Assembly: GCF_048403405.1 (NCBI RefSeq)
Contig: NZ_CP183129.1
Reading direction: 5' to 3' (one strand)
Source of the DNA: Escherichia coli
GTDB taxonomy: Bacteria; Pseudomonadota; Gammaproteobacteria; Enterobacterales; Enterobacteriaceae
Length of the DNA stretch: 64,000 nt
In this document: one piece after another, positions 1 to 55,151 of the stretch
Layout: the number at the start of each line of letters is the position of its first letter
Numbering within the stretch: the stretch's first letter is position 1
Notes under the pieces: generated by a model
What the model saw: the letters and a program-made list of their open reading frames with translations, nothing else
Told to the model about the DNA's origin: nothing
Database searches by the model: none
Program-made: the position numbers and the translations under genes

Positions 1-464
1 GCGTACATCAGACCACGCTTGCTATTGATTTGCAGATGATTCAAAGCATGGGTGGTACGCCAGTGTGGCCGCTGATTGCGCTGTCGAATATCGCTCAGGG
101 CTCCGCCGTGATAGGTATTATCATTTCCAGCCGCAAGCACAATGAACGCGAGATCTCCGTGCCTGCCGCTATCTCCGCCTGGCTTGGAGTCACTGAGCCT
201 GCTATGTACGGCATCAACCTGAAATATCGCTTCCCGATGCTGTGCGCGATGATTGGTTCTGGTCTGGCAGGATTGCTATGCGGCCTGAACGGCGTTATGG
301 CGAATGGCATCGGCGTAGGCGGCCTGCCGGGAATTCTCTCGATTCAACCGAGCTACTGGCAGGTGTTTGCGCTGGCAATGGCTATCGCCATCATCATCCC
401 GATTGTACTCACCTCGTTTATCTATCAGCGGAAATACCGCCTGGGCACGCTGGACATTGTTTAA
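1..464 (+). CDS. treB: PTS trehalose-specific EIIBC component, C-terminal part (partial, starts upstream of window)
   Basis: Hydrophobic PTS EIIC-like C-terminus ending at stop 462-464, immediately upstream of treC as in the treBC operon. Confidence 0.85.
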   Translation, partial: VHQTTLAIDLQMIQSMGGTPVWPLIALSNIAQGSAVIGIIISSRKHNEREISVPAAISAWLGVTEPAMYGINLKYRFPMLCAMIGSGLAGLLCGLNGVMANGIGVGGLPGILSIQPSYWQVFALAMAIAIIIPIVLTSFIYQRKYRLGTLDIV

Positions 465-513
465 TTTTCTTCGGGGCGCAATTGCGCCCCCTCGCATTTG
501 CAGGAATAACGTA

Positions 514-2169
514 ATGACTCATCTTCCCCACTGGTGGCAAAACGGCGTTATCTACCAGATTTATCCAAAGAGTTTTCAGGACACCACGGGTAGCGGCACC
601 GGCGATTTACGTGGCGTTATCCAACGCCTGGACTATCTGCATAAACTGGGCGTTGATGCCATCTGGCTAACCCCCTTTTATGTCTCTCCCCAGGTCGATA
701 ACGGTTACGACGTAGCGAATTATACGGCGATTGATCCCACCTATGGCACGCTGGACGATTTTGACGAACTGGTGACGCAGGCAAAATCTCGCGGGATTCG
801 TATCATTCTCGATATGGTGTTTAACCATACCTCTACCCAACATGCCTGGTTTCGCGAGGCGCTGAACAAAGCAAGCCCTTACCGCCAGTTTTATATCTGG
901 CGCGATGGAGAACCAGAAACGCCACCGAACAACTGGCGTTCAAAATTCGGTGGTAGTGCGTGGCACTGGCATGCAGAAAGCGAACAGTACTATTTGCATC
1001 TCTTTGCACCAGAACAGGCGGATCTCAACTGGGAGAATCCAGCGGTACGCGCAGAGCTGAAAAAAGTCTGTGAGTTCTGGGCCGATCGTGGGGTCGACGG
1101 GTTGCGCCTGGATGTGGTGAATCTGATCTCCAAAGATCCGCGTTACCCTGAAGACCAGGATGGCGACGGGCGTCGCTTCTACACCGACGGGCCACGAGCA
1201 CACGAGTTTTTGCACGAGATGAACCGCGATGTGTTTACGCCACGCGGGTTAATGACCGTAGGTGAAATGTCCTCCACCAGCCTTGAGCATTGCCAGCGAT
1301 ACGCGGCTCTGACAGGCAGTGAATTGTCGATGACCTTTAATTTTCATCACCTGAAAGTCGATTATCCCGGTGGTGAAAAATGGACGCTGGCTAAACCTGA
1401 CTTTGTGGCGTTGAAAACATTGTTCCGCCACTGGCAACAAGGAATGCACAACGTGGCATGGAATGCCTTGTTCTGGTGTAACCACGATCAGCCGCGCATT
1501 GTTTCTCGCTTTGGTGATGAAGGTGAATACCGCGTGCCTGCGGCAAAAATGCTGGCGATGGTGCTGCATGGCATGCAGGGAACGCCGTATATCTACCAGG
1601 GCGAAGAGATTGGCATGACCAACCCGCATTTCACGCGCATTACTGACTATCGCGACGTGGAGAGCCTCAATATGTTTGCCGAACAGCGCAACAATGGGCG
1701 TGATGCCGACGAGTTATTGGCAATCCTCGCCAGTAAATCCCGTGACAACAGTCGCACACCCATGCAATGGAGCAACGGCGATAATGCCGGGTTTACGGCT
1801 GGCGAACCGTGGATTGGTCTGGGCGATAACTATCAGGAAATCAACGTAGAAGCCGCGCTGACCGATGAGTCCTCGGTGTTTTACACCTACCAAAAGTTAA
1901 TCGCACTGCGTAAGCAAGAAGCCGTTCTGACATGGGGCGATTACCAGGATCTGCTGCCAAACAGCCCTGTATTGTGGTGCTATCGCCGTGAATGGAAGGG
2001 GCAAACCTTGTTGGTCATTGCCAACCTTAGCCGTGAGATCCAACCCTGGCAACCAGGGCAAATGCGCGGCAACTGGCAGCTTGTGATGCATAACTACGAA
2101 GAAGCCTCACCACAACCCTGCGCCATGACTTTACGGCCTTTTGAGGCTGTCTGGTGGTTACAAAAGTAA
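514..2169 (+). CDS. treC: trehalose-6-phosphate hydrolase
   Basis: 551 aa from ATG 514; GH13 alpha-amylase family sequence (MTHLPHWWQNGVIYQIYPKSF...); the longer ORF from 367 overlaps treB and is rejected. Confidence 0.95.
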   Translation: MTHLPHWWQNGVIYQIYPKSFQDTTGSGTGDLRGVIQRLDYLHKLGVDAIWLTPFYVSPQVDNGYDVANYTAIDPTYGTLDDFDELVTQAKSRGIRIILDMVFNHTSTQHAWFREALNKASPYRQFYIWRDGEPETPPNNWRSKFGGSAWHWHAESEQYYLHLFAPEQADLNWENPAVRAELKKVCEFWADRGVDGLRLDVVNLISKDPRYPEDQDGDGRRFYTDGPRAHEFLHEMNRDVFTPRGLMTVGEMSSTSLEHCQRYAALTGSELSMTFNFHHLKVDYPGGEKWTLAKPDFVALKTLFRHWQQGMHNVAWNALFWCNHDQPRIVSRFGDEGEYRVPAAKMLAMVLHGMQGTPYIYQGEEIGMTNPHFTRITDYRDVESLNMFAEQRNNGRDADELLAILASKSRDNSRTPMQWSNGDNAGFTAGEPWIGLGDNYQEINVEAALTDESSVFYTYQKLIALRKQEAVLTWGDYQDLLPNSPVLWCYRREWKGQTLLVIANLSREIQPWQPGQMRGNWQLVMHNYEEASPQPCAMTLRPFEAVWWLQK

Positions 2170-2181
2170 ATCTTCGCTAAG

Positions 2182-2212
2182 CCCCGGTAATGCCGGTCAT
2201 TCCGGGGTTTTG
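2182..2212 (+). terminator. rho-independent terminator candidate downstream of treC
   Basis: ccccgg (2182-2187) pairs with ccgggg (2202-2207), followed by tttt 2208-2211. Confidence 0.6.
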
Positions 2213-2233
2213 CCTGTCAGCATGTTGTTTTTG

Positions 2234-2249
2234 TTGATTTTATAATCAA
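2234..2249. promoter_or_regulatory. FNR-like inverted repeat in nrdD upstream region (TTGAT-N6-ATCAA)
   Basis: ttgat 2234-2238 and atcaa 2245-2249; spacing is 6 not the canonical 4, so assignment is tentative; nrdDG is known to be FNR-activated. Confidence 0.3.
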
Positions 2250-2354
2250 AAAATTCATTAAAAAATTTACATATCGCTGTAGCGCCCGTCATCCGTACGC
2301 TCTGCTTTTTACTTTGAGCTACATCAAAAAAAGTTCAAACATCCTTGATGCAAA

Positions 2355-2401
2355 GCACTATATATAGACTTTAAAATGCGTCCCAACCCAATATGTTGTA
2401 T
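2355..2401. promoter_or_regulatory. pair of NrdR-box-like sequences upstream of nrdD
   Basis: gcactatatatagact (2355-2370) and accaatatgttgtat (2386-2401), each about 13/16 match to my recollection of the NrdR box consensus, centres 31 bp apart; tataat-like -10 at 2410-2415. Confidence 0.45.
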
Positions 2402-2562
2402 TAATCGACTATAATTGCTACTACAGCTCCCCACGAAAAAGGTGCGGCGTTGTGGATAAGCGGATGGTGATTGCGGAAAGCACCGGAAAACGAAACAAAA
2501 AAACCGGAAAACGCCTTTCCCAATTTCTGTGGATAACCTGTTCTTAAAAATATGGAGCGATC

Positions 2563-4701
2563 ATGACACCGCATGTGATGAAACGAGACGGCTGCAAAGT
2601 GCCGTTTAAATCAGAGCGCATCAAAGAAGCGATTCTGCGTGCAGCTAAAGCAGCGGAAGTCGATGATGCCGATTATTGCGCCACTGTTGCCGCGGTTGTC
2701 AGCGAGCAGATGCAGGGCCGCAACCAGGTGGATATCAATGAGATCCAGACCGCAGTTGAAAACCAGCTGATGTCGGGTCCATACAAACAACTGGCTCGTG
2801 CTTACATCGAGTACCGTCACGATCGCGACATTGAACGTGAAAAACGCGGTCGCCTGAACCAGGAGATCCGTGGTCTGGTCGAGCAGACCAACTCCTCGTT
2901 ACTCAACGAAAACGCCAACAAAGACAGCAAGGTGATTCCAACCCAGCGCGATCTGCTGGCCGGGATCGTGGCTAAACACTATGCACGCCAGCACCTGCTG
3001 CCGCGTGACGTGGTGCAGGCACATGAACGTGGTGATATTCACTATCACGATCTCGATTACTCGCCGTTCTTCCCGATGTTCAACTGCATGTTGATCGACC
3101 TGAAAGGCATGCTGACCCAGGGCTTTAAAATGGGGAACGCCGAGATTGAACCGCCGAAGTCGATCTCTACGGCAACCGCGGTAACTGCGCAGATTATTGC
3201 CCAGGTCGCCAGCCATATTTATGGCGGCACCACCATTAACCGTATCGATGAAGTGCTGGCACCGTTTGTCACCGCCAGCTACAACAAACATCGCAAGACC
3301 GCAGAAGAGTGGAACATCCCGGACGCCGAAGGCTACGCTAACTCTCGTACCATCAAAGAGTGCTACGATGCCTTCCAGTCGCTGGAGTACGAAGTAAACA
3401 CCCTGCACACCGCCAACGGTCAAACGCCGTTTGTGACCTTTGGTTTTGGTCTGGGCACCAGCTGGGAATCGCGCCTGATTCAGGAATCTATCCTGCGTAA
3501 TCGTATCGCAGGCCTCGGTAAAAACCGTAAAACTGCGGTGTTCCCGAAACTGGTGTTTGCGATTCGCGATGGCCTGAACCATAAAAAAGGCGATCCGAAC
3601 TACGACATCAAACAGCTGGCGCTGGAGTGCGCAAGCAAGCGCATGTATCCGGATATCCTGAACTACGATCAGGTAGTGAAAGTCACCGGTTCGTTTAAAA
3701 CCCCGATGGGCTGCCGCAGCTTCCTCGGCGTGTGGGAAAATGAAAACGGCGAGCAGATCCACGATGGTCGTAACAACCTCGGCGTGATCAGCCTGAACCT
3801 GCCGCGTATTGCTCTGGAGGCAAAAGGCGATGAAGCCACCTTCTGGAAGCTGCTGGATGAACGTCTGGTGCTGGCACGTAAGGCGCTGATGACCCGTATC
3901 GCTCGTCTCGAAGGCGTGAAAGCGCGCGTAGCCCCGATCCTCTATATGGAAGGCGCTTGTGGCGTGCGTCTGAATGCTGACGACGACGTTTCTGAAATCT
4001 TCAAAAACGGTCGTGCGTCTATTTCGCTGGGTTACATCGGCATCCACGAAACCATTAACGCGCTGTTCGGCGGCGAGCATGTTTACGACAACGAGCAGCT
4101 GCGCGCGAAAGGTATTGCGATTGTTGAACGTCTGCGTCAGGCAGTGGATCAGTGGAAAGAAGAAACGGGTTATGGCTTCAGTCTCTACAGCACGCCGAGT
4201 GAAAACCTGTGCGACCGCTTCTGCCGTCTCGATACCGCTGAGTTTGGCGTGGTGCCGGGCGTGACCGATAAAGGTTACTACACCAACAGTTTCCACCTTG
4301 ATGTGGAGAAAAAGGTGAACCCGTATGACAAGATCGACTTTGAAGCGCCTTACCCGCCGCTGGCGAACGGTGGTTTCATTTGCTACGGCGAGTATCCAAA
4401 CATTCAGCACAACCTGAAGGCGCTGGAAGATGTCTGGGATTACAGCTATCAGCATGTACCGTATTACGGCACCAATACGCCGATCGATGAGTGCTACGAG
4501 TGTGGCTTTACTGGCGAGTTCGAGTGCACCAGCAAAGGCTTCACTTGCCCGAAATGTGGTAACCATGACGCCTCCCGTGTGTCGGTGACTCGCCGCGTGT
4601 GCGGATATTTAGGTAGCCCGGATGCACGTCCGTTTAACGCCGGTAAGCAGGAAGAAGTTAAGCGCCGCGTTAAACATTTGGGGAATGGGCAGATAGGTTA
4701 A
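2563..4701 (+). CDS. nrdD: anaerobic ribonucleoside-triphosphate reductase
   Basis: 712 aa; ATP-cone N-terminus, C-terminal glycyl-radical and Zn-ribbon Cys motifs (CYECGF...CPKCG). Confidence 0.97.
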   Translation: MTPHVMKRDGCKVPFKSERIKEAILRAAKAAEVDDADYCATVAAVVSEQMQGRNQVDINEIQTAVENQLMSGPYKQLARAYIEYRHDRDIEREKRGRLNQEIRGLVEQTNSSLLNENANKDSKVIPTQRDLLAGIVAKHYARQHLLPRDVVQAHERGDIHYHDLDYSPFFPMFNCMLIDLKGMLTQGFKMGNAEIEPPKSISTATAVTAQIIAQVASHIYGGTTINRIDEVLAPFVTASYNKHRKTAEEWNIPDAEGYANSRTIKECYDAFQSLEYEVNTLHTANGQTPFVTFGFGLGTSWESRLIQESILRNRIAGLGKNRKTAVFPKLVFAIRDGLNHKKGDPNYDIKQLALECASKRMYPDILNYDQVVKVTGSFKTPMGCRSFLGVWENENGEQIHDGRNNLGVISLNLPRIALEAKGDEATFWKLLDERLVLARKALMTRIARLEGVKARVAPILYMEGACGVRLNADDDVSEIFKNGRASISLGYIGIHETINALFGGEHVYDNEQLRAKGIAIVERLRQAVDQWKEETGYGFSLYSTPSENLCDRFCRLDTAEFGVVPGVTDKGYYTNSFHLDVEKKVNPYDKIDFEAPYPPLANGGFICYGEYPNIQHNLKALEDVWDYSYQHVPYYGTNTPIDECYECGFTGEFECTSKGFTCPKCGNHDASRVSVTRRVCGYLGSPDARPFNAGKQEEVKRRVKHLGNGQIG

Positions 4702-14285: not shown

Positions 14286-15242
14286 TCAATACCCCATATT
14301 TTTCTTTTTCTCTAACTCTTCTTTTGCGGTATCAGGCAGATAAAGGGTGGATTTGGTCAGTGTTAGCTTTTCAGGCATGGTGCCGTCTTTTTTGTATTTC
14401 TCCAGCGCGTCGAAAGCAGGACCTGCCATGTTCGGCGTCAGTTCAACACTGGCGTTCGCTTCGCCATCAATCATCGCTTTGTAGATATCCGGTACGCCAT
14501 CAATGGAACCCGTGAGGATATCTTTACCCGGCTTCAGGCCCGCTTCTTTAATTGCCTGAATTGCGCCAATCACCATGTCATCGTTATGGGCGTAAACCAT
14601 GCAGATGTTTTTGCCGTTGTTTTCTGCTTTGATAAAGCTCTCCATCACTTCTTTGCCTTTGCTGCGGGTGAAGTCACCTGACTGCGAGCGGATAATTTTG
14701 ATATTTGGCGCATTCTTAATGGCTTCGGCAAAGCCTTTCTTACGGTCAATGGCGACGCTGGCCCCAACGGTGCCCTGCAGCTCCACCACGTTGCATGGTT
14801 TGCCATTCACTTCTTTTACCAGCCAGTCACCAATCAACTTGCCTTCGAGGATGTTGTCGGCGGTGACAGTGGTCATATAGAGAGATTTGTCTTTCACATC
14901 GATGGAACGGTCAAGCAAGAAGACCGGGATTTCGGCATCTTTCGCCTCTTTTAATACCGGCTCCCAACCGGTCGCTACCACTGGAGCGATAAAGATCGCA
15001 TCCACCCCTTGCGCGACGAAGGAACGTACCGCTTTAATCTGGTTTTCCTGCTTTTGCTGACCATCGGCAATTTTCAACGTAATTCCGCGCTTTTCGGCTT
15101 CACTTTTCGCCACATTGGTTTCTGCGGCGCGCCAGCCGGATTCCGATCCGACCTGCGAAAATCCAACGGTTAATGGAGCGGCCAACGCCATAGACGACAT
15201 GGCTGCCGAGACTGCAGAGACTACAAGTAAGCGTTTCCACAT
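14286..15242 (-). CDS. ytfQ: periplasmic galactofuranose-binding protein
   Basis: 318 aa with signal peptide; periplasmic sugar-binding family. Confidence 0.93.
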   Translation of the reverse strand: MWKRLLVVSAVSAAMSSMALAAPLTVGFSQVGSESGWRAAETNVAKSEAEKRGITLKIADGQQKQENQIKAVRSFVAQGVDAIFIAPVVATGWEPVLKEAKDAEIPVFLLDRSIDVKDKSLYMTTVTADNILEGKLIGDWLVKEVNGKPCNVVELQGTVGASVAIDRKKGFAEAIKNAPNIKIIRSQSGDFTRSKGKEVMESFIKAENNGKNICMVYAHNDDMVIGAIQAIKEAGLKPGKDILTGSIDGVPDIYKAMIDGEANASVELTPNMAGPAFDALEKYKKDGTMPEKLTLTKSTLYLPDTAKEELEKKKNMGY

Positions 15243-15551
15243 AGGGTTGTCCTCGTCGGGGTAATTATTATTGGTGAAAAGATGTTCGCGAAAAAACTAT
15301 AGACAATTCGTTATGTAACGGATTGCGTTACATCACACTTCAAAAAAGTAAATAAAACGTTAATCACAAGTTTGTAATCGCTTTCATCTCACTATGAAAA
15401 ATGCGGCTACGGTTATGGATTTTCCTGCTCTTTAAACCATCTTAAAACTGGCTAAAAAGGAAAATGAAGAAGAAAACAAGCGAAGACATTCGGCGCGAGT
15501 TGGCTATAATACTCGGCACTTGTTTGCCACATATTTTTAAAGGAAACAGAC

Positions 15552-16082
15552 ATGAGCTTACTCAACGTCCCTGCGGGTAAAGATCTGCCGGAAGACATCT
15601 ACGTTGTTATTGAGATCCCGGCTAACGCAGATCCGATCAAATACGAAATCGACAAAGAGAGCGGCGCACTGTTCGTTGACCGCTTCATGTCCACCGCGAT
15701 GTTCTATCCGTGCAACTACGGTTACATCAACCACACCCTGTCTCTGGACGGTGACCCGGTTGACGTACTGGTCCCGACTCCGTACCCGCTGCAGCCGGGT
15801 TCTGTGATCCGTTGCCGTCCTGTTGGCGTTCTGAAAATGACCGACGAAGCCGGTGAAGATGCGAAACTGGTTGCGGTTCCGCACAGCAAGCTGAGCAAAG
15901 AATACGATCACATTAAAGACGTTAACGATCTGCCTGAACTGCTGAAAGCACAGATCGCTCACTTCTTCGAGCACTACAAAGACCTCGAAAAAGGCAAGTG
16001 GGTGAAAGTTGAAGGCTGGGAAAACGCAGAAGCCGCTAAAGCTGAAATCGTTGCCTCCTTCGAGCGCGCAAAGAATAAATAA
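15552..16082 (+). CDS. ppa: inorganic pyrophosphatase
   Basis: 176 aa; unmistakable Ppa sequence. Confidence 0.97.
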
Positions 16083-16160
16083 GTTCTTCTAGCGTAATAA
16101 CCCTGAACGCCGGGCTTCGGTTAGTAGGGGTTTTTTATGCCCGCGATAAATAAACACACC

Positions 16161-16511
16161 TTATTCCACCACCGCCTGCAAACGTAATAACGCCTCTTCC
16201 ACCACCTCACCCGCAGCCAGACCAATACGCTTTGCCAGCCGGGCGCGTAGATCCATCATCCGCACCTGATTCACCAGCACCACGCCGTGTACATCGCCTT
16301 CTTCGCAATGTAAAGGAACGCTAAATCCGGCATAACGGGCAAAATTTCCGCCCTGCGTAATGGGGGCCACCAGCGTCATTCCCAGTTGATTAAAGGCTTG
16401 AACGGAGAGCACAAGCGCAGGTCGACCAGCACCTTGCTGTTCATGGCCGCTTGCTGGATCAAAGCCAACCAGCACAATGTCTCCCCGTTCAAATTCACTT
16501 TTCTTTACCAT
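16161..16511 (-). CDS. chpB: toxin ChpB (MazF-family endoribonuclease)
   Basis: 116 aa PemK/MazF-like; overlaps the chpS stop by 7 nt. Confidence 0.93.
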   Translation of the reverse strand: MVKKSEFERGDIVLVGFDPASGHEQQGAGRPALVLSVQAFNQLGMTLVAPITQGGNFARYAGFSVPLHCEEGDVHGVVLVNQVRMMDLRARLAKRIGLAAGEVVEEALLRLQAVVE

Positions 16512-16756
16512 ATTTCGTCACCCGCAGGGGTGGATTTACCCCAGACATCCTGCTCGCTAAGTTCCGTGGCGTTCATGTCACACTGTGCCAGCAGTTCATC
16601 AAGCGAGTAGCGCCTGGAGATGGGTGTCAGAATCAGTTGATTGTTGCTCACTTGCGCCTCCACGCTCTGCCCCGGCCGTAAGTTAAGTTCTTTCATCACA
16701 ACATTAGGAATGACCATACCTGAACTGTTCCCCCATTTTTTTATGGTAATACGCAT
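16505..16756 (-). CDS. chpS: antitoxin ChpS (MazE/AbrB-fold)
   Basis: 83 aa from ATG 16754-16756 (MRITIKKWGNSSG...); SD-like cacctcctt 16763-16771. Confidence 0.92.
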   Translation of the reverse strand: MRITIKKWGNSSGMVIPNVVMKELNLRPGQSVEAQVSNNQLILTPISRRYSLDELLAQCDMNATELSEQDVWGKSTPAGDEIW

Positions 16757-16770
16757 CTGCACCTCCTTAA

Positions 16771-16787
16771 GTTATACAAAGTATAAC
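16771..16787. promoter_or_regulatory. perfect inverted repeat just upstream of chpS, candidate ChpS-ChpB operator
   Basis: gttatac-aaa-gtataac, 15-31 nt upstream of the chpS ATG. Confidence 0.55.
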
Positions 16788-16927
16788 TCACGGTGCTACA
16801 GGAAACGTTTTACCCCTGCGCATTTGTGAACGCCAGCAGAGTTTTTTATGCGTTAACAGATATGGAAAGCGGCTCGGAGAGAAAAGCAAAAGGTGAGGGA
16901 ATTACAAAACAGAATGCGAGTCGTCTC

Positions 16928-16957
16928 GCAAAAAACAACGCCACCCGAAGGTGGCGT
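16928..16957 (-). terminator. rho-independent terminator downstream of ytfP
   Basis: acgccacc-cgaa-ggtggcgt stem-loop (16938-16957) preceded on + by an A-run 16930-16935, which is a U-tract on the minus strand. Confidence 0.75.
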
Positions 16958-16967
16958 ATGCGTATGG

Positions 16968-17309
16968 TTACTTATCCCTGTCTAACCAGTCGCCGCTTTC
17001 AATTAGCTTTAATCCATCGACGGGTCGTTGATAAACGTACATCCATGCACTCCCGTACGGCGTCTGAATCAACTGGCGCGCGTATTCACCGCCCCTGGTG
17101 CGCAAGGCATCAAGTTCGGCCAGCGTGGCGTTGTCAATACGATAAACTTCACCGTGTACTGTTCCGTTCCCCGGAACTGCGCCTGGATAGTGGCCCAGGC
17201 TATACAACTGGTAGTTATCGATACTGAAATCGCCCAGTAACTGGGCATTGGTCATCCAGTGACTGTTGCCTTGTTTGTGGCGTAAACTGCCGTAGACAAA
17301 TATTCGCAT
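16968..17309 (-). CDS. ytfP: gamma-glutamylcyclotransferase-family protein
   Basis: 113 aa AIG2/GGCT-like; start 2 nt downstream of the tamB stop. Confidence 0.9.
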   Translation of the reverse strand: MRIFVYGSLRHKQGNSHWMTNAQLLGDFSIDNYQLYSLGHYPGAVPGNGTVHGEVYRIDNATLAELDALRTRGGEYARQLIQTPYGSAWMYVYQRPVDGLKLIESGDWLDRDK

Positions 17310-25346: not shown

Positions 25347-25369
25347 ACGGCTCCTGAATCAGGAGCCGT
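25347..25369. terminator. hairpin between the convergent ytfL and ytfK
   Basis: acggctcctg-aat-caggagccgt perfect 10-bp stem, followed by cttatta. Confidence 0.6.
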
Positions 25370-30578: not shown

Positions 30579-30677
30579 GGCCTACAAATCATCAACCGCA
30601 TCCGACACTTTTGTCGGATGCGATGCTGGCGCATCTTATCCGTCCTACAAGTCATACACCGTAGGCCGCGCATCCTG
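30579..30677. repeat. cluster of REP-type palindromic units
   Basis: cggcctac..., gcatccgacacttttgtcggatgc hairpin, ...gtaggccgcgcatcc; fills the whole cpdB-ytfH convergent spacer. Confidence 0.8.
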
Positions 30678-33141: not shown

Positions 33142-33164
33142 AAGATGCATTTAAAATGCATCTT
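33142..33164. promoter_or_regulatory. NsrR operator upstream of ytfE
   Basis: Perfect 23-bp palindrome aagatgcattt-a-aaatgcatctt, 27 nt upstream of the ytfE ATG; matches the NsrR site known for ytfE. Confidence 0.85.
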
Positions 33165-38566: not shown

Positions 38567-38597
38567 GCAAAACGCCGACCAGTGGTCGGCGTTTTTA
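38567..38597. terminator. bidirectional rho-independent terminator between yjfZ and rplI
   Basis: aacgccgacc-agt-ggtcggcgtt perfect 10-bp stem with A-run upstream and ttttt downstream. Confidence 0.8.
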
Positions 38598-55119: not shown

Positions 55120-55151
55120 AAAAAAAAACCATCCAAATCTGGATGGTTTTT
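55120..55151. terminator. bidirectional rho-independent terminator downstream of rlmB
   Basis: A-run 55120-55128, ccatcca-aatc-tggatgg stem-loop, ttttt 55147-55151. Confidence 0.8.

Follow-up and report, generated by a model that had tools for sequence, protein, structure and literature searches.

The chpSB operon of Escherichia coli is already known as one of the classic type II toxin-antitoxin loci of this species, and papers citing Zhang et al. (2005) describe its toxin, ChpBK, as a ribosome-independent mRNA interferase. Its regulation can be compared with that of parD/pemIK (plasmids R1/R100), mazEF and hicAB. In parD of plasmid R1, region I is an 18-bp symmetric element which includes the -10 sequence and is protected by Kis and by Kid-Kis in hydroxyl-radical footprints; region II, a second and weaker pseudo-symmetric site, lies approximately 33 bp upstream. 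The pem/parD promoter reads GTTATATTTAAATATAAC immediately before the Shine-Dalgarno sequence, at the place corresponding to the chpS element described below. The mazEF operator, known as "cab", is an alternating palindrome bound by MazE, the toxin enhancing the binding of the antitoxin. The hicAB operon has a distal promoter (P1), which depends upon Sxy and a CRP-S site, and a proximal, antitoxin-repressed promoter (P2). The CRP-S (Sxy-dependent CRP) motif has core half-sites TGCGA and TCGCA, 6 bp apart, and according to a review citing Sinha et al. (2009) overexpression of sxy up-regulates chpSB.

We have analysed the chpSB locus within a 64-kb window, this being the whole stretch of E. coli DNA that was studied. 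The genes and their neighbours are:

15552 to 16082, plus strand: ppa, flanking the chpB side of the module
16101 to 16136, plus strand: hairpin and T run in the chpB-ppa spacer, the probable ppa terminator
16161 to 16511, minus strand: chpB, MazF/PemK-family endoribonuclease toxin of 116 amino acids (open reading frame, profile matches and RefSeq annotation)
16505 to 16756, minus strand: chpS, AbrB/MazE-type antitoxin of 83 amino acids, with its ATG at 16756
16762 to 16768, minus strand: Shine-Dalgarno sequence AAGGAGG, 5 nt before the chpS ATG, as read from the sequence
16938 to 16957, minus strand: intrinsic terminator of ytfP, ACGCCACC-TTCG-GGTGGCGT followed by a T run
16968 to 17309, minus strand: ytfP, flanking the chpS side of the module

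By its profile matches the locus is E. coli chpS-chpB, a type II toxin-antitoxin module of the MazEF/ChpSB/PemIK (Kis-Kid) family, in agreement with the preliminary description, which had recognized it as a known system. ChpS scores 192 bits against its NCBIfam equivalog (cut-off 101) and ChpB 226.8 bits (cut-off 129), while Ppa scores 321 bits. In Pfam, residues 5-49 of ChpS match MazE_antitoxin (PF04014; E 7.5e-12) and residues 8-114 of ChpB match PemK_toxin (PF02452; E 4e-25). In keeping with an antitoxin of this family, built from an N-terminal AbrB/SpoVT/MazE swapped-hairpin domain for DNA binding and a C-terminal tail for toxin binding, ChpS can be aligned from end to end with MazE and PemI, and RefSeq annotates chpB in identical or near-identical loci. 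The 7-nt overlap of the two genes that had been described corresponds to a shared ATGGTAA at 16505 to 16511, and the module does lie in the spacer between ppa and ytfP. The chpS-then-chpB arrangement recurs in every homologous locus examined. The mechanical list of open reading frames begins chpS at a GTG (16762) which falls within the Shine-Dalgarno sequence; RefSeq places the start at the ATG. The GGAGG of this Shine-Dalgarno sequence is kept in E. whittamii, Enterobacter asburiae and a metagenomic homologue, L015.

The ytfP terminator detected by the terminator scan has eight pairs, six of them G-C, and a T tail; it is conserved across all the aligned alleles and would insulate chpSB against read-through from tamAB-ytfP. 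The hairpin on the ppa side has the stem CCCUGAAC...GUAGGGG followed by UUUUUU, with a folding energy no better than that of shuffled sequences (z -0.5), and it persists in alleles which lack chpSB.

Immediately upstream of chpS are two features which bear on its transcription:

16771 to 16787, not stranded: perfect palindrome GTTATAC-TTT-GTATAAC (as read on the chpS strand), the proposed operator for ChpS or ChpS-ChpB
16780 to 16785, minus strand: -10-like hexamer TATACT in the left arm of the palindrome, matching TATAAT at five of six positions

The palindrome, which had been reported as gttatac-aaa-gtataac, occupies the stretch 15-31 nt 5' of the A of the chpS ATG without a mismatch, and lies 3 nt 5' of the Shine-Dalgarno sequence. 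It can be extended to arms of 8 nt (AGTTATAC-AAA-GTATAACT, 16770 to 16788). GTTATAC-N3-GTATAAC has a single match in the 64-kb window even when up to two mismatches are allowed (0.12 expected), and the expected number of perfect inverted repeats in a given 60-nt window is 0.025 for arms of at least 7 nt and spacers of up to 6 nt, and 0.006 for arms of at least 8 nt.

The symmetry could nevertheless be incidental, the left arm being simply the -10 sequence and the right arm having arisen by chance or by quasi-palindrome mutation with no function in binding. In its favour are the small size and AT-richness of the element, the occurrence in the window of 38 perfect repeats with arms of at least 7 nt as against about 27 in shuffled sequences, and the template-switch "correction" of quasi-palindromes which is evident at a chpSB locus (L011). 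We regard this explanation as scarcely credible, since both arms are invariant across lineages which are only about 50% identical at neutral sites, and since the symmetric motif recurs before independent homologues, sometimes twice per promoter.

The palindrome is the best-conserved stretch of the chpSB module, under a constraint far above that of its surroundings. Among 3,097 module-bearing E. coli genomes a 35-nt core containing it is identical in 3,084, and a 71-nt stretch varies in 279. When compared with E. asburiae and L015 it is identical at 16 and 17 of its 17 positions, respectively, as against 41-52% for the upstream flank, 67-71% for the chpS coding sequence and 46-54% for third-codon positions. 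Only the central triplet varies among the homologues (TTT, TAT or AAT), as would be expected of an operator made up of two half-sites. Two natural variants were found: a G to A change in the right arm (strain 272), and one E. coli genome in which the imperfect dyad surrounding the palindrome has been "perfected" into a hairpin with arms of 21 nt and a 3-nt centre.

The word-indexed protein search returned near-identical E. coli ChpS only and the contig scan gave four loci; the diversity of homologues discussed here was drawn from a representative search with contig look-ups, and from plasmids. Of 15 independent upstream regions of the ChpS family, 7 contain an exact TATAC-N3-GTATA at 15-25 nt ahead of the start codon, compared with 0.006 in shuffles, and the motif is seen in Enterobacter, on a Yersinia plasmid and at metagenomic loci whose neighbours are unrelated. 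Throughout the ChpS subclade the element is 17 bp long with a 3-nt centre, and a second copy lies 40-45 bp upstream in the Yersinia homologues and in L019.

One further reading of the element was discarded. Because the homology that BLAST detects between E. coli and L015 begins at the palindrome, the element was considered as a site of recombination or as the edge of the module; this was rejected, since farther upstream there are still conserved, if weaker, blocks (GTAGAAC, CTGGTATT and the CRP-S site described below).

A second rival holds that a host regulator other than ChpS binds the palindrome, and that any autoregulation of chpSB takes place elsewhere. AT-rich palindromes lying over a -10 sequence are common targets of repressors, and the accessible literature yielded no direct ChpS-DNA data, nor any description of a promoter or operator of chpS or chpSB. 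Against this, the motif follows genes of the ChpS family across unrelated hosts and replicons; its presence beside them in Enterobacter, on the Yersinia plasmid and in metagenomic loci fits a binder encoded by the module itself. More distant antitoxins, moreover, have correspondingly different palindromes, as is seen with mazE, with L010 and L023 (GTAATAAC-ATN-GTTAGTAC) and with the 18-bp element of pem, and in parD the homologous site is a target of Kis, the homologous antitoxin. A host regulator acting in place of ChpS is consequently very unlikely in our estimation.

If TATACT serves as the -10 sequence, transcription would start near 16773. The -35 position of E. coli chpS reads CGTTTC, a poor match, and a sigma-70 consensus scan of 16050-17050 revealed no promoter on the chpS strand; the L015 homologue has ATGACA 16 nt upstream of an identical TATACT. 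Since the scan finds no promoter on this strand, the -10 assignment is made by analogy and from the homologue L015. Neither chpS nor its coordinates appear among the listed transcription start sites in the Cappable-seq, SMRT-Cappable-seq and Kim 2012 supplements.

The 17-bp palindrome is very probably the operator of the chpSB operon, to which ChpS or the ChpS-ChpB complex would bind. This is the role which the preliminary description had proposed for it, and the proposal gains from the homology to parD region I, from conservation and from linkage to ChpS homologues. In the model that we favour, which draws upon parD and mazEF, dimers of the N-terminal domain of ChpS would bind the half-sites GTTATAC and GTATAAC, and bound ChpS would block RNA polymerase at the proximal promoter, repressing chpS and chpB. 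ChpB would make no contact with DNA; it would bridge ChpS dimers and tighten their binding while antitoxin is in excess. Were ChpS to be degraded, or ChpB to exceed ChpS, the complex would lose its affinity, transcription would resume and the antitoxin would be replenished (conditional cooperativity). The importance of this result is modest, chpSB being a known system in which autorepression at a palindromic operator is expected; an operator of this sort is an ordinary, textbook feature of such modules. What is gained is a specific prediction for chpSB, with half-sites GTTATAC/GTATAAC and a free central triplet, and the natural variants, together with homologues bearing one or two sites, provide a clean basis for the design of EMSA and reporter experiments.

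A more tentative part of the model concerns a site farther upstream:

16915 to 16930, not stranded: TGCGA-N6-TCGCA, an exact CRP-S-type core and candidate distal activator site, 159-174 nt upstream of the chpS ATG

This is the sole exact match in the 64-kb window. The same element is found 160-175 nt upstream in another homologue, L016, which lacks the ytfP context, and near-matches to the core are present in E. asburiae, in E. whittamii and in the allele carrying a chpB remnant. The scanner had called 16915 to 16930 a weak terminator-like hairpin. The CRP-S-type site is a likely basis for the induction of chpSB by Sxy that has been reported, and it suggests a second, distal promoter or input dependent upon Sxy and CRP, which would probably be added to the operator control outlined above. 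Since this upstream site is conserved and Sxy induction is reported, the promoter at the palindrome may not be the only one. Starts farther upstream may be used as well, or may even predominate, and the palindrome would then lie within a transcribed leader.

Such a leader has folding properties of its own, by virtue of a larger dyad:

16745 to 16814, minus strand: extended imperfect dyad centred on the palindrome, which as RNA would pair across the Shine-Dalgarno sequence and the AUG

This dyad folds at -28.2 kcal/mol (z -4.9) and the leader from 16860 to 16745 at -37.6 kcal/mol (z -3.75), none of 200 shuffled sequences being as stable in either case. For the 74-nt core the z value is -4.9 (E. 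coli), -3.9 (L015) or -2.2 (E. asburiae), and each of the three pairs its Shine-Dalgarno sequence with a run of pyrimidines lying upstream, the sequences used being different. The hairpin over the chpS ribosome-binding site is stable, its significance is uncertain and its relevance depends upon a start upstream of 16814.

It might therefore be argued that the dyad is an RNA element, instead of or besides being an operator: in a long mRNA, arising from the distal Sxy/CRP-S-dependent promoter or from read-through of ytfP, a hairpin would bury the Shine-Dalgarno sequence and AUG of chpS and gate translation or stability. The stability of the leader and of the core in E. coli, the pairing of the Shine-Dalgarno sequence by different means in three lineages, the fixed upstream distance of the CRP-S-type site together with the Sxy induction related in the review, and the perfected hairpin of the single E. 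coli genome all point in this direction. On the other hand, covariation contributes almost nothing (a term of -0.12 kcal/mol) to a consensus fold of the different lineages, in which the outer pairs are frequently disrupted among the aligned sequences, and the Yersinia and more distant homologues fold no better than shuffled sequences. Arms which are conserved in sequence rather than covarying fit recognition by a protein better. The strong ytfP terminator also speaks against this reading, as does parD, where the mapped -10 sequence lies in the left arm so that the parD mRNA lacks that arm. The invariant core of 7 + 7 nt is itself neutral with respect to RNA pairing. On balance a role as an RNA element is unlikely.

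Of similarly low probability, in our judgement, is a dual-input module in which the palindrome acts at two levels, in a long-leader RNA and as a DNA operator. Here the conserved Sxy/CRP-S distal promoter (at about 160-175 nt) would yield a long-leader mRNA in which the dyad hides the Shine-Dalgarno sequence and AUG of chpS, while the proximal promoter, with its -10 sequence in the palindrome, would yield a short and freely translated mRNA and be shut off by ChpS/ChpB. If true, this would integrate competence-type signalling and the level of antitoxin on one 70-bp element.

The distribution of the module was also surveyed. The chpSB genes are present in 3,097 of 5,426 complete E. coli genomes (57%). 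Many of the genomes lacking the module retain a decayed chpB remnant at the same site, without chpS or the palindrome, about 1,800 genomes bear such a remnant, and around one complete E. coli genome in three has this dead copy in place of an empty site. The promoter, palindrome and chpS have been deleted together in this natural loss allele, leaving dead chpB behind, which favours the operator reading that we prefer. The preliminary description had called the module accessory-type. The term is apt only in part: some E. coli genomes lack the module, but many of these hold a chpB pseudogene in place of a virgin site, and in E. asburiae the module is likewise found between ytfP and ppa. Copies of ChpS on E. 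coli "plasmids" were considered as a sign of mobility and rejected, because the records in question contain tamB-ytfP-chpSB-ppa-ytfQ and are thus chromosomal segments. The frequency of dead remnants bears upon the debate over selection versus decay of chromosomal toxin-antitoxin modules.

With respect to parD/pemIK, the PemI proteins of which are 34-38% identical to ChpS, the resemblance is close. Both parD region I and the chpS palindrome are perfectly two-fold symmetric and immediately upstream of the Shine-Dalgarno sequence, their outer half-sites GTTATA...TATAAC are identical, and a hexamer resembling a -10 sequence lies in the left arm of each (TATATT in parD, TATACT in chpS). They differ in that the chpS element is 17 bp long with 5 bp between the hexamers, whereas that of parD is 18 bp with 6 bp, and in that chpS has a G at -14 without the full TGn extended -10. 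Unlike parD, with its region II, chpSB of E. coli lacks a further copy, the element being matched nowhere else in the 64-kb window at up to two mismatches. A 17-bp sequence lying 53 bp upstream (GTTAACGCATAAAAAAC) was considered as a region II-like site and rejected, as neither K-12 nor E. asburiae nor L015 has kept it. The binding of Kis/Kid at region I was demonstrated by footprinting, whereas the chpS operator is predicted from sequence. Because chpSB and pem/parD share GTTATA/TATAAC half-sites, plasmid and chromosomal modules might cross-regulate each other at their operators, the 1-bp difference in spacing acting as partial insulation; this is a lesser variant of the improbable dual-input reading.

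The mazEF module is a paralog, and MazE entries are the closest solved structures to ChpS. The DNA-contact loop of MazE (K7-R8-W9-G10-N11-S12) aligns with K6-K7-W8-G9-N10-S11 of ChpS, a retained loop that favours the operator reading, but the base-contacting Arg16 of MazE is replaced by Val15 in the alignment, so that base recognition cannot simply be transferred from one protein to the other. The mazEF "c" site, ATCTAC-AAT-GTAGAT, has a TAC-N3-GTA core and a 3-nt spacer, as in chpS, and the "a" site contains TATACT, as does the chpS left arm; the outer bases are ATC/GAT in mazEF as against TTA/TAA in chpS. There are three adjacent sites in mazEF, covering 47 bp at 20-65 nt from the ATG, compared with one in chpSB.

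Finally, chpSB resembles hicAB in having an exact CRP-S core, situated about 135 bp upstream of the predicted operator, and induction by Sxy is reported, in the review literature, to be common to chpSB, hicAB and higBA. The two differ in gene order (toxin-antitoxin in hicAB, antitoxin-toxin in chpSB) and their protein families are unrelated; a two-promoter architecture of the hicAB kind is tentatively predicted for chpSB.

The chpS-chpB pair is already a known system, and its identity and its place between ppa and ytfP were borne out by NCBIfam, Pfam and the gene neighbours. The NCBIfam equivalog models gave 192 bits for ChpS (cut-off 101) and 227 bits for ChpB (cut-off 129), well in excess of the curated cut-offs, and the products fall into the Pfam families MazE_antitoxin and PemK_toxin. 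The ppa-ytfP spacer (885 bp) is 100% identical to that of strain TUM14771 and 98% identical to that of K-12 MG1655. The two genes overlap by 7 nt, as had been described, the sequence ATGGTAA being common to both. A mechanical ORF list started chpS at GTG 16762; this was rejected as lying inside the Shine-Dalgarno sequence, and RefSeq takes the ATG. The features are:

15552-16082, plus strand: ppa, neighbour of the module
16511 to 16161, minus strand: chpB, 116 aa
16756 (ATG) to 16505, minus strand: chpS, 83 aa
16762-16768, minus strand: chpS Shine-Dalgarno sequence AAGGAGG
16771-16787: palindrome GTTATAC-AAA-GTATAAC
16780-16785, minus strand: -10-like TATACT, in the left arm of the palindrome
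16915-16930 (22-bp site about 16912-16933): CRP-S core TGCGA-GACGAC-TCGCA, an exact match to the definition of Cameron and Redfield
16968-17309, minus strand: ytfP, neighbour of the module, with tamB next

The palindrome is, as first reported, without mismatch and lies 15-31 nt upstream of the first base of the chpS start codon. One further complementary pair per side extends it to 8-3-8 (16770-16788), and the order 5' to 3' on the chpS strand is palindrome, 2-3 nt, Shine-Dalgarno, 5 nt, ATG. The 64-kb window holds no other match at ≤2 mismatches (0.12 expected). Perfect repeats with a spacer of ≤6 are expected 0.025 times per given 60-nt stretch with arms ≥7, and 0.006 times with arms ≥8; taken alone these expectations are suggestive only, and the weight rests on comparison.

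Of 3097 module-bearing complete E. coli genomes, 2818 match the whole 71-nt promoter stretch and 3084 match its central 35 nt, which include the palindrome, so that nearly all variation falls in the outer 36 nt. Since such genome counts are phylogenetically non-independent, more can be learnt from other lineages, namely Enterobacter asburiae, whose ChpS is 76% identical to that of E. coli, and the metagenomic homologous loci L015 and L016 (64%). The palindrome is identical at 16/17 positions in E. asburiae and 17/17 in L015/L016, the sole change being TTT to TAT at the centre, while identity is 41-52% in the 29 nt upstream, 67-71% in the chpS coding region and 46-54% at its third-codon positions. 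Both arms are under strong selective constraint; the centre is not. L015 is flanked by genes for a small secreted protein and a chemoreceptor rather than by ytfP and ppa, which indicates that the palindrome moves with the module. One natural operator variant, GTTATAC-TTT-ATATAAC in strain 272 (L012), has A instead of G at the right-arm base next to the central triplet. Only 13 of the 3097 genomes, this one included, differ anywhere in the 35-nt core, and the variant offers a ready-made mutant for binding tests.

The ChpS clade is narrow, a representative search giving one cluster at 64% identity and all others at ≤45%. A Yersinia plasmid homologue (55%) carries TTATAC-TTT-GTATAA with a second motif, TATAC-AAT-GTATA, 45 bp upstream; among further homologous loci L019 (~41%) has two copies of TTATAC-AAT-GTATAA 40 bp apart, L021 has TTTATAC-AAT-GTATAAA and L018 ATATAC-TAT-GTATAT. 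Of 15 independent upstream regions of ChpS-family genes, 7 contain an exact TATAC-N3-GTATA, versus 0.006 in dinucleotide shuffles. At the same place, more distant antitoxins have a mazE-like ATCTAC-AAT-G... (Massilia and Burkholderia) or GTAATAAC-ATN-GTTAGTAC (Rheinheimera and locus L023). A palindrome that changes as the antitoxin diverges is the pattern expected of a cis site that evolves together with the protein bound to it.

Other inverted repeats were seen in the window. The ytfQ-ppa divergent intergenic region holds a perfect palindrome, ATGTAACG-GATTG-CGTTACAT (15313-15333), 71-91 nt before the start codon of ytfQ (ATG at 15242, minus strand); it resembles LacI/GalR-family operators, and the ytfQ product is a galactofuranose-binding protein. 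Further long perfect repeats (arms 11-13) lie at 25347-25369, 30597-30622, 33142-33164, 38569-38595 and 55124-55151. Several resemble intrinsic terminators with A/T-run flanks; that at 33142-33164, AAGATGCATTT-A-AAATGCATCTT, is AT-rich and no obvious terminator.

An imperfect dyad spans 16814 to 16745 and as RNA would enclose the Shine-Dalgarno sequence and AUG, which raises an additional role in long chpS transcripts, if such exist, without replacing the operator model. The 74-nt segment folds at -28.2 kcal/mol (z -4.9, 0/200 shuffles as stable) and the 116-nt leader at -37.6 kcal/mol (z -3.75), and an upstream pyrimidine stretch pairs with the Shine-Dalgarno sequence also in L015 (z -3.9) and E. 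asburiae (z -2.2). However, covariation adds about nothing to the consensus fold (-0.12 kcal/mol), and folds of the Yersinia and more distant homologues are no more stable than those of shuffled sequence; we regard this role as unlikely. In E. coli O111:H2 strain 08-3342 (L011, locus ~415-460) an exact reverse complement of the Shine-Dalgarno side has taken the place of the 21 nt that otherwise precede the palindrome centre, giving a perfect 21-3-21 palindrome, CTGCACCTCCTTAAGTTATAC-TTT-GTATAACTTAAGGAGGTGCAG. This has the look of a template-switch event that "corrected" the natural quasi-palindrome, though it may be an assembly artefact. The change would alter the -35/spacer region and, in any long transcript, mask the Shine-Dalgarno sequence completely.

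The module had also been called accessory-type. It is present in 3097 of 5426 complete E. coli genomes and absent from 43%, which agrees with that label, but the common "empty" allele is a decayed remnant and not a virgin site. About 1600-1800 complete genomes have a decayed chpB pseudogene instead (alleles L001, L003 and L004), and about 1600 match at 80-90% identity in the flanks only. The remnant keeps chpB nt 19-145 (72% identity, E 1e-14), joined at a TGGTGG repeat to the final codons of the gene, with stops and frameshifts and without promoter, palindrome or chpS; its left junction falls between 16806 and 16805, within the -35-equivalent. Its intergenic flanks are unusually diverged (about 88-92% identity). 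Since the ytfP-ppa locus of E. asburiae also holds the complete module, the remnant argues that the module is old there and that part of E. coli has lost it through decay. Plasmid-borne E. coli chpS in PLSDB was rejected: several records (H131-H137, e.g. L026, NZ_AP023207.1; 94 kb to 4.9 Mb) carry chromosomal tamB-ytfP-chpSB-ppa-ytfQ. They are pieces of chromosome, or chromosomes wrongly filed as plasmids, and would inflate "plasmid-borne" counts.

Some points weaken the operator model. The E. coli -35 position is poor (CGTTTC, 16-nt spacer to TATACT), although the L015 equivalent is ATGACA-16 nt-TATACT; a promoter scanner reported no sigma-70 promoter for chpS, and the published data searched gave no chpS transcription start. 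Two upstream blocks, 16827-16840 (CTGCTGGCGTTCAC) and 16806-16812 (GTAAAAC), keep their position in E. coli, E. asburiae and L015/L016, as CTGGTATT/CTGGCGTT at about -80 and GTAGAAC/GTAAAAC at about -57, in otherwise unalignable DNA; TGG-TATT resembles an extended -10.

According to a review, chpSB is up-regulated by sxy overexpression. The CRP-S core lies 159-174 nt upstream of the chpS ATG and has no second copy in the window; a scanner had flagged this element as a second terminator-like hairpin. L016 has TGCGA-AGTTTA-TCGCA 160-175 nt from its ATG, without ytfP or terminator context, and the aligned position in E. asburiae, E. whittamii, L015 and the remnant allele holds CRP-S with 1 or 2 mismatches; the site thus appears to be part of the module. 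It probably accounts for the reported effect of Sxy. No convincing -10 for it was located. The sequence suggests a distal Sxy/CRP-dependent promoter beside the operator-bearing proximal one, an arrangement also described for hicAB. That chpSB combines two promoters with a dyad used at two levels is improbable.

The reading of the palindrome as an autoregulatory operator is supported by its conservation, its linkage to the ChpS family and its likeness to parD and mazEF; the autorepression model, taken whole, is by this homology quite likely. ChpS dimers would bind the two half-sites and so occlude the promoter, ChpB would act as co-repressor when the toxin:antitoxin ratio is low, and degradation of ChpS or an excess of ChpB would relieve repression. 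A literature search, not reaching several relevant older papers, found no description of a chpSB operator, which is apparently an expected, unmapped case of the parD/mazEF type. In parD of plasmid R1, region I is an 18-bp perfect symmetric element containing the promoter -10, protected by Kis and by Kid-Kis; Kid alone does not bind DNA, yet strengthens Kis binding, and the pseudo-symmetric, weaker region II lies 33 bp upstream (Monti et al. 2007). PemI/Kis is 34-38% identical to ChpS, and upstream of pemI in an IncF plasmid region I reads GGATGTTATATTTAAATATAACTTTTATGGAGGTGAAGAATG. Region I and the 17-bp chpS element share the outer hexamers GTTATA...TATAAC and the place just 5' of the Shine-Dalgarno sequence, and the -10-like TATACT of chpS occupies the corresponding left arm. 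In the paralogous mazEF promoter the 47-bp "cab" operator, bound by MazE and more tightly with MazF, includes ATCTAC-AAT-GTAGAT, whose TAC-N3-GTA core and 3-nt centre are those of the chpS element. ChpS retains, as K6 K7 W8 G9 N10 S11, the loop that in MazE (K7 R8 W9 G10 N11 S12) changes position when DNA is bound, whereas MazE Arg16, which contacts bases, is Val15 in ChpS.
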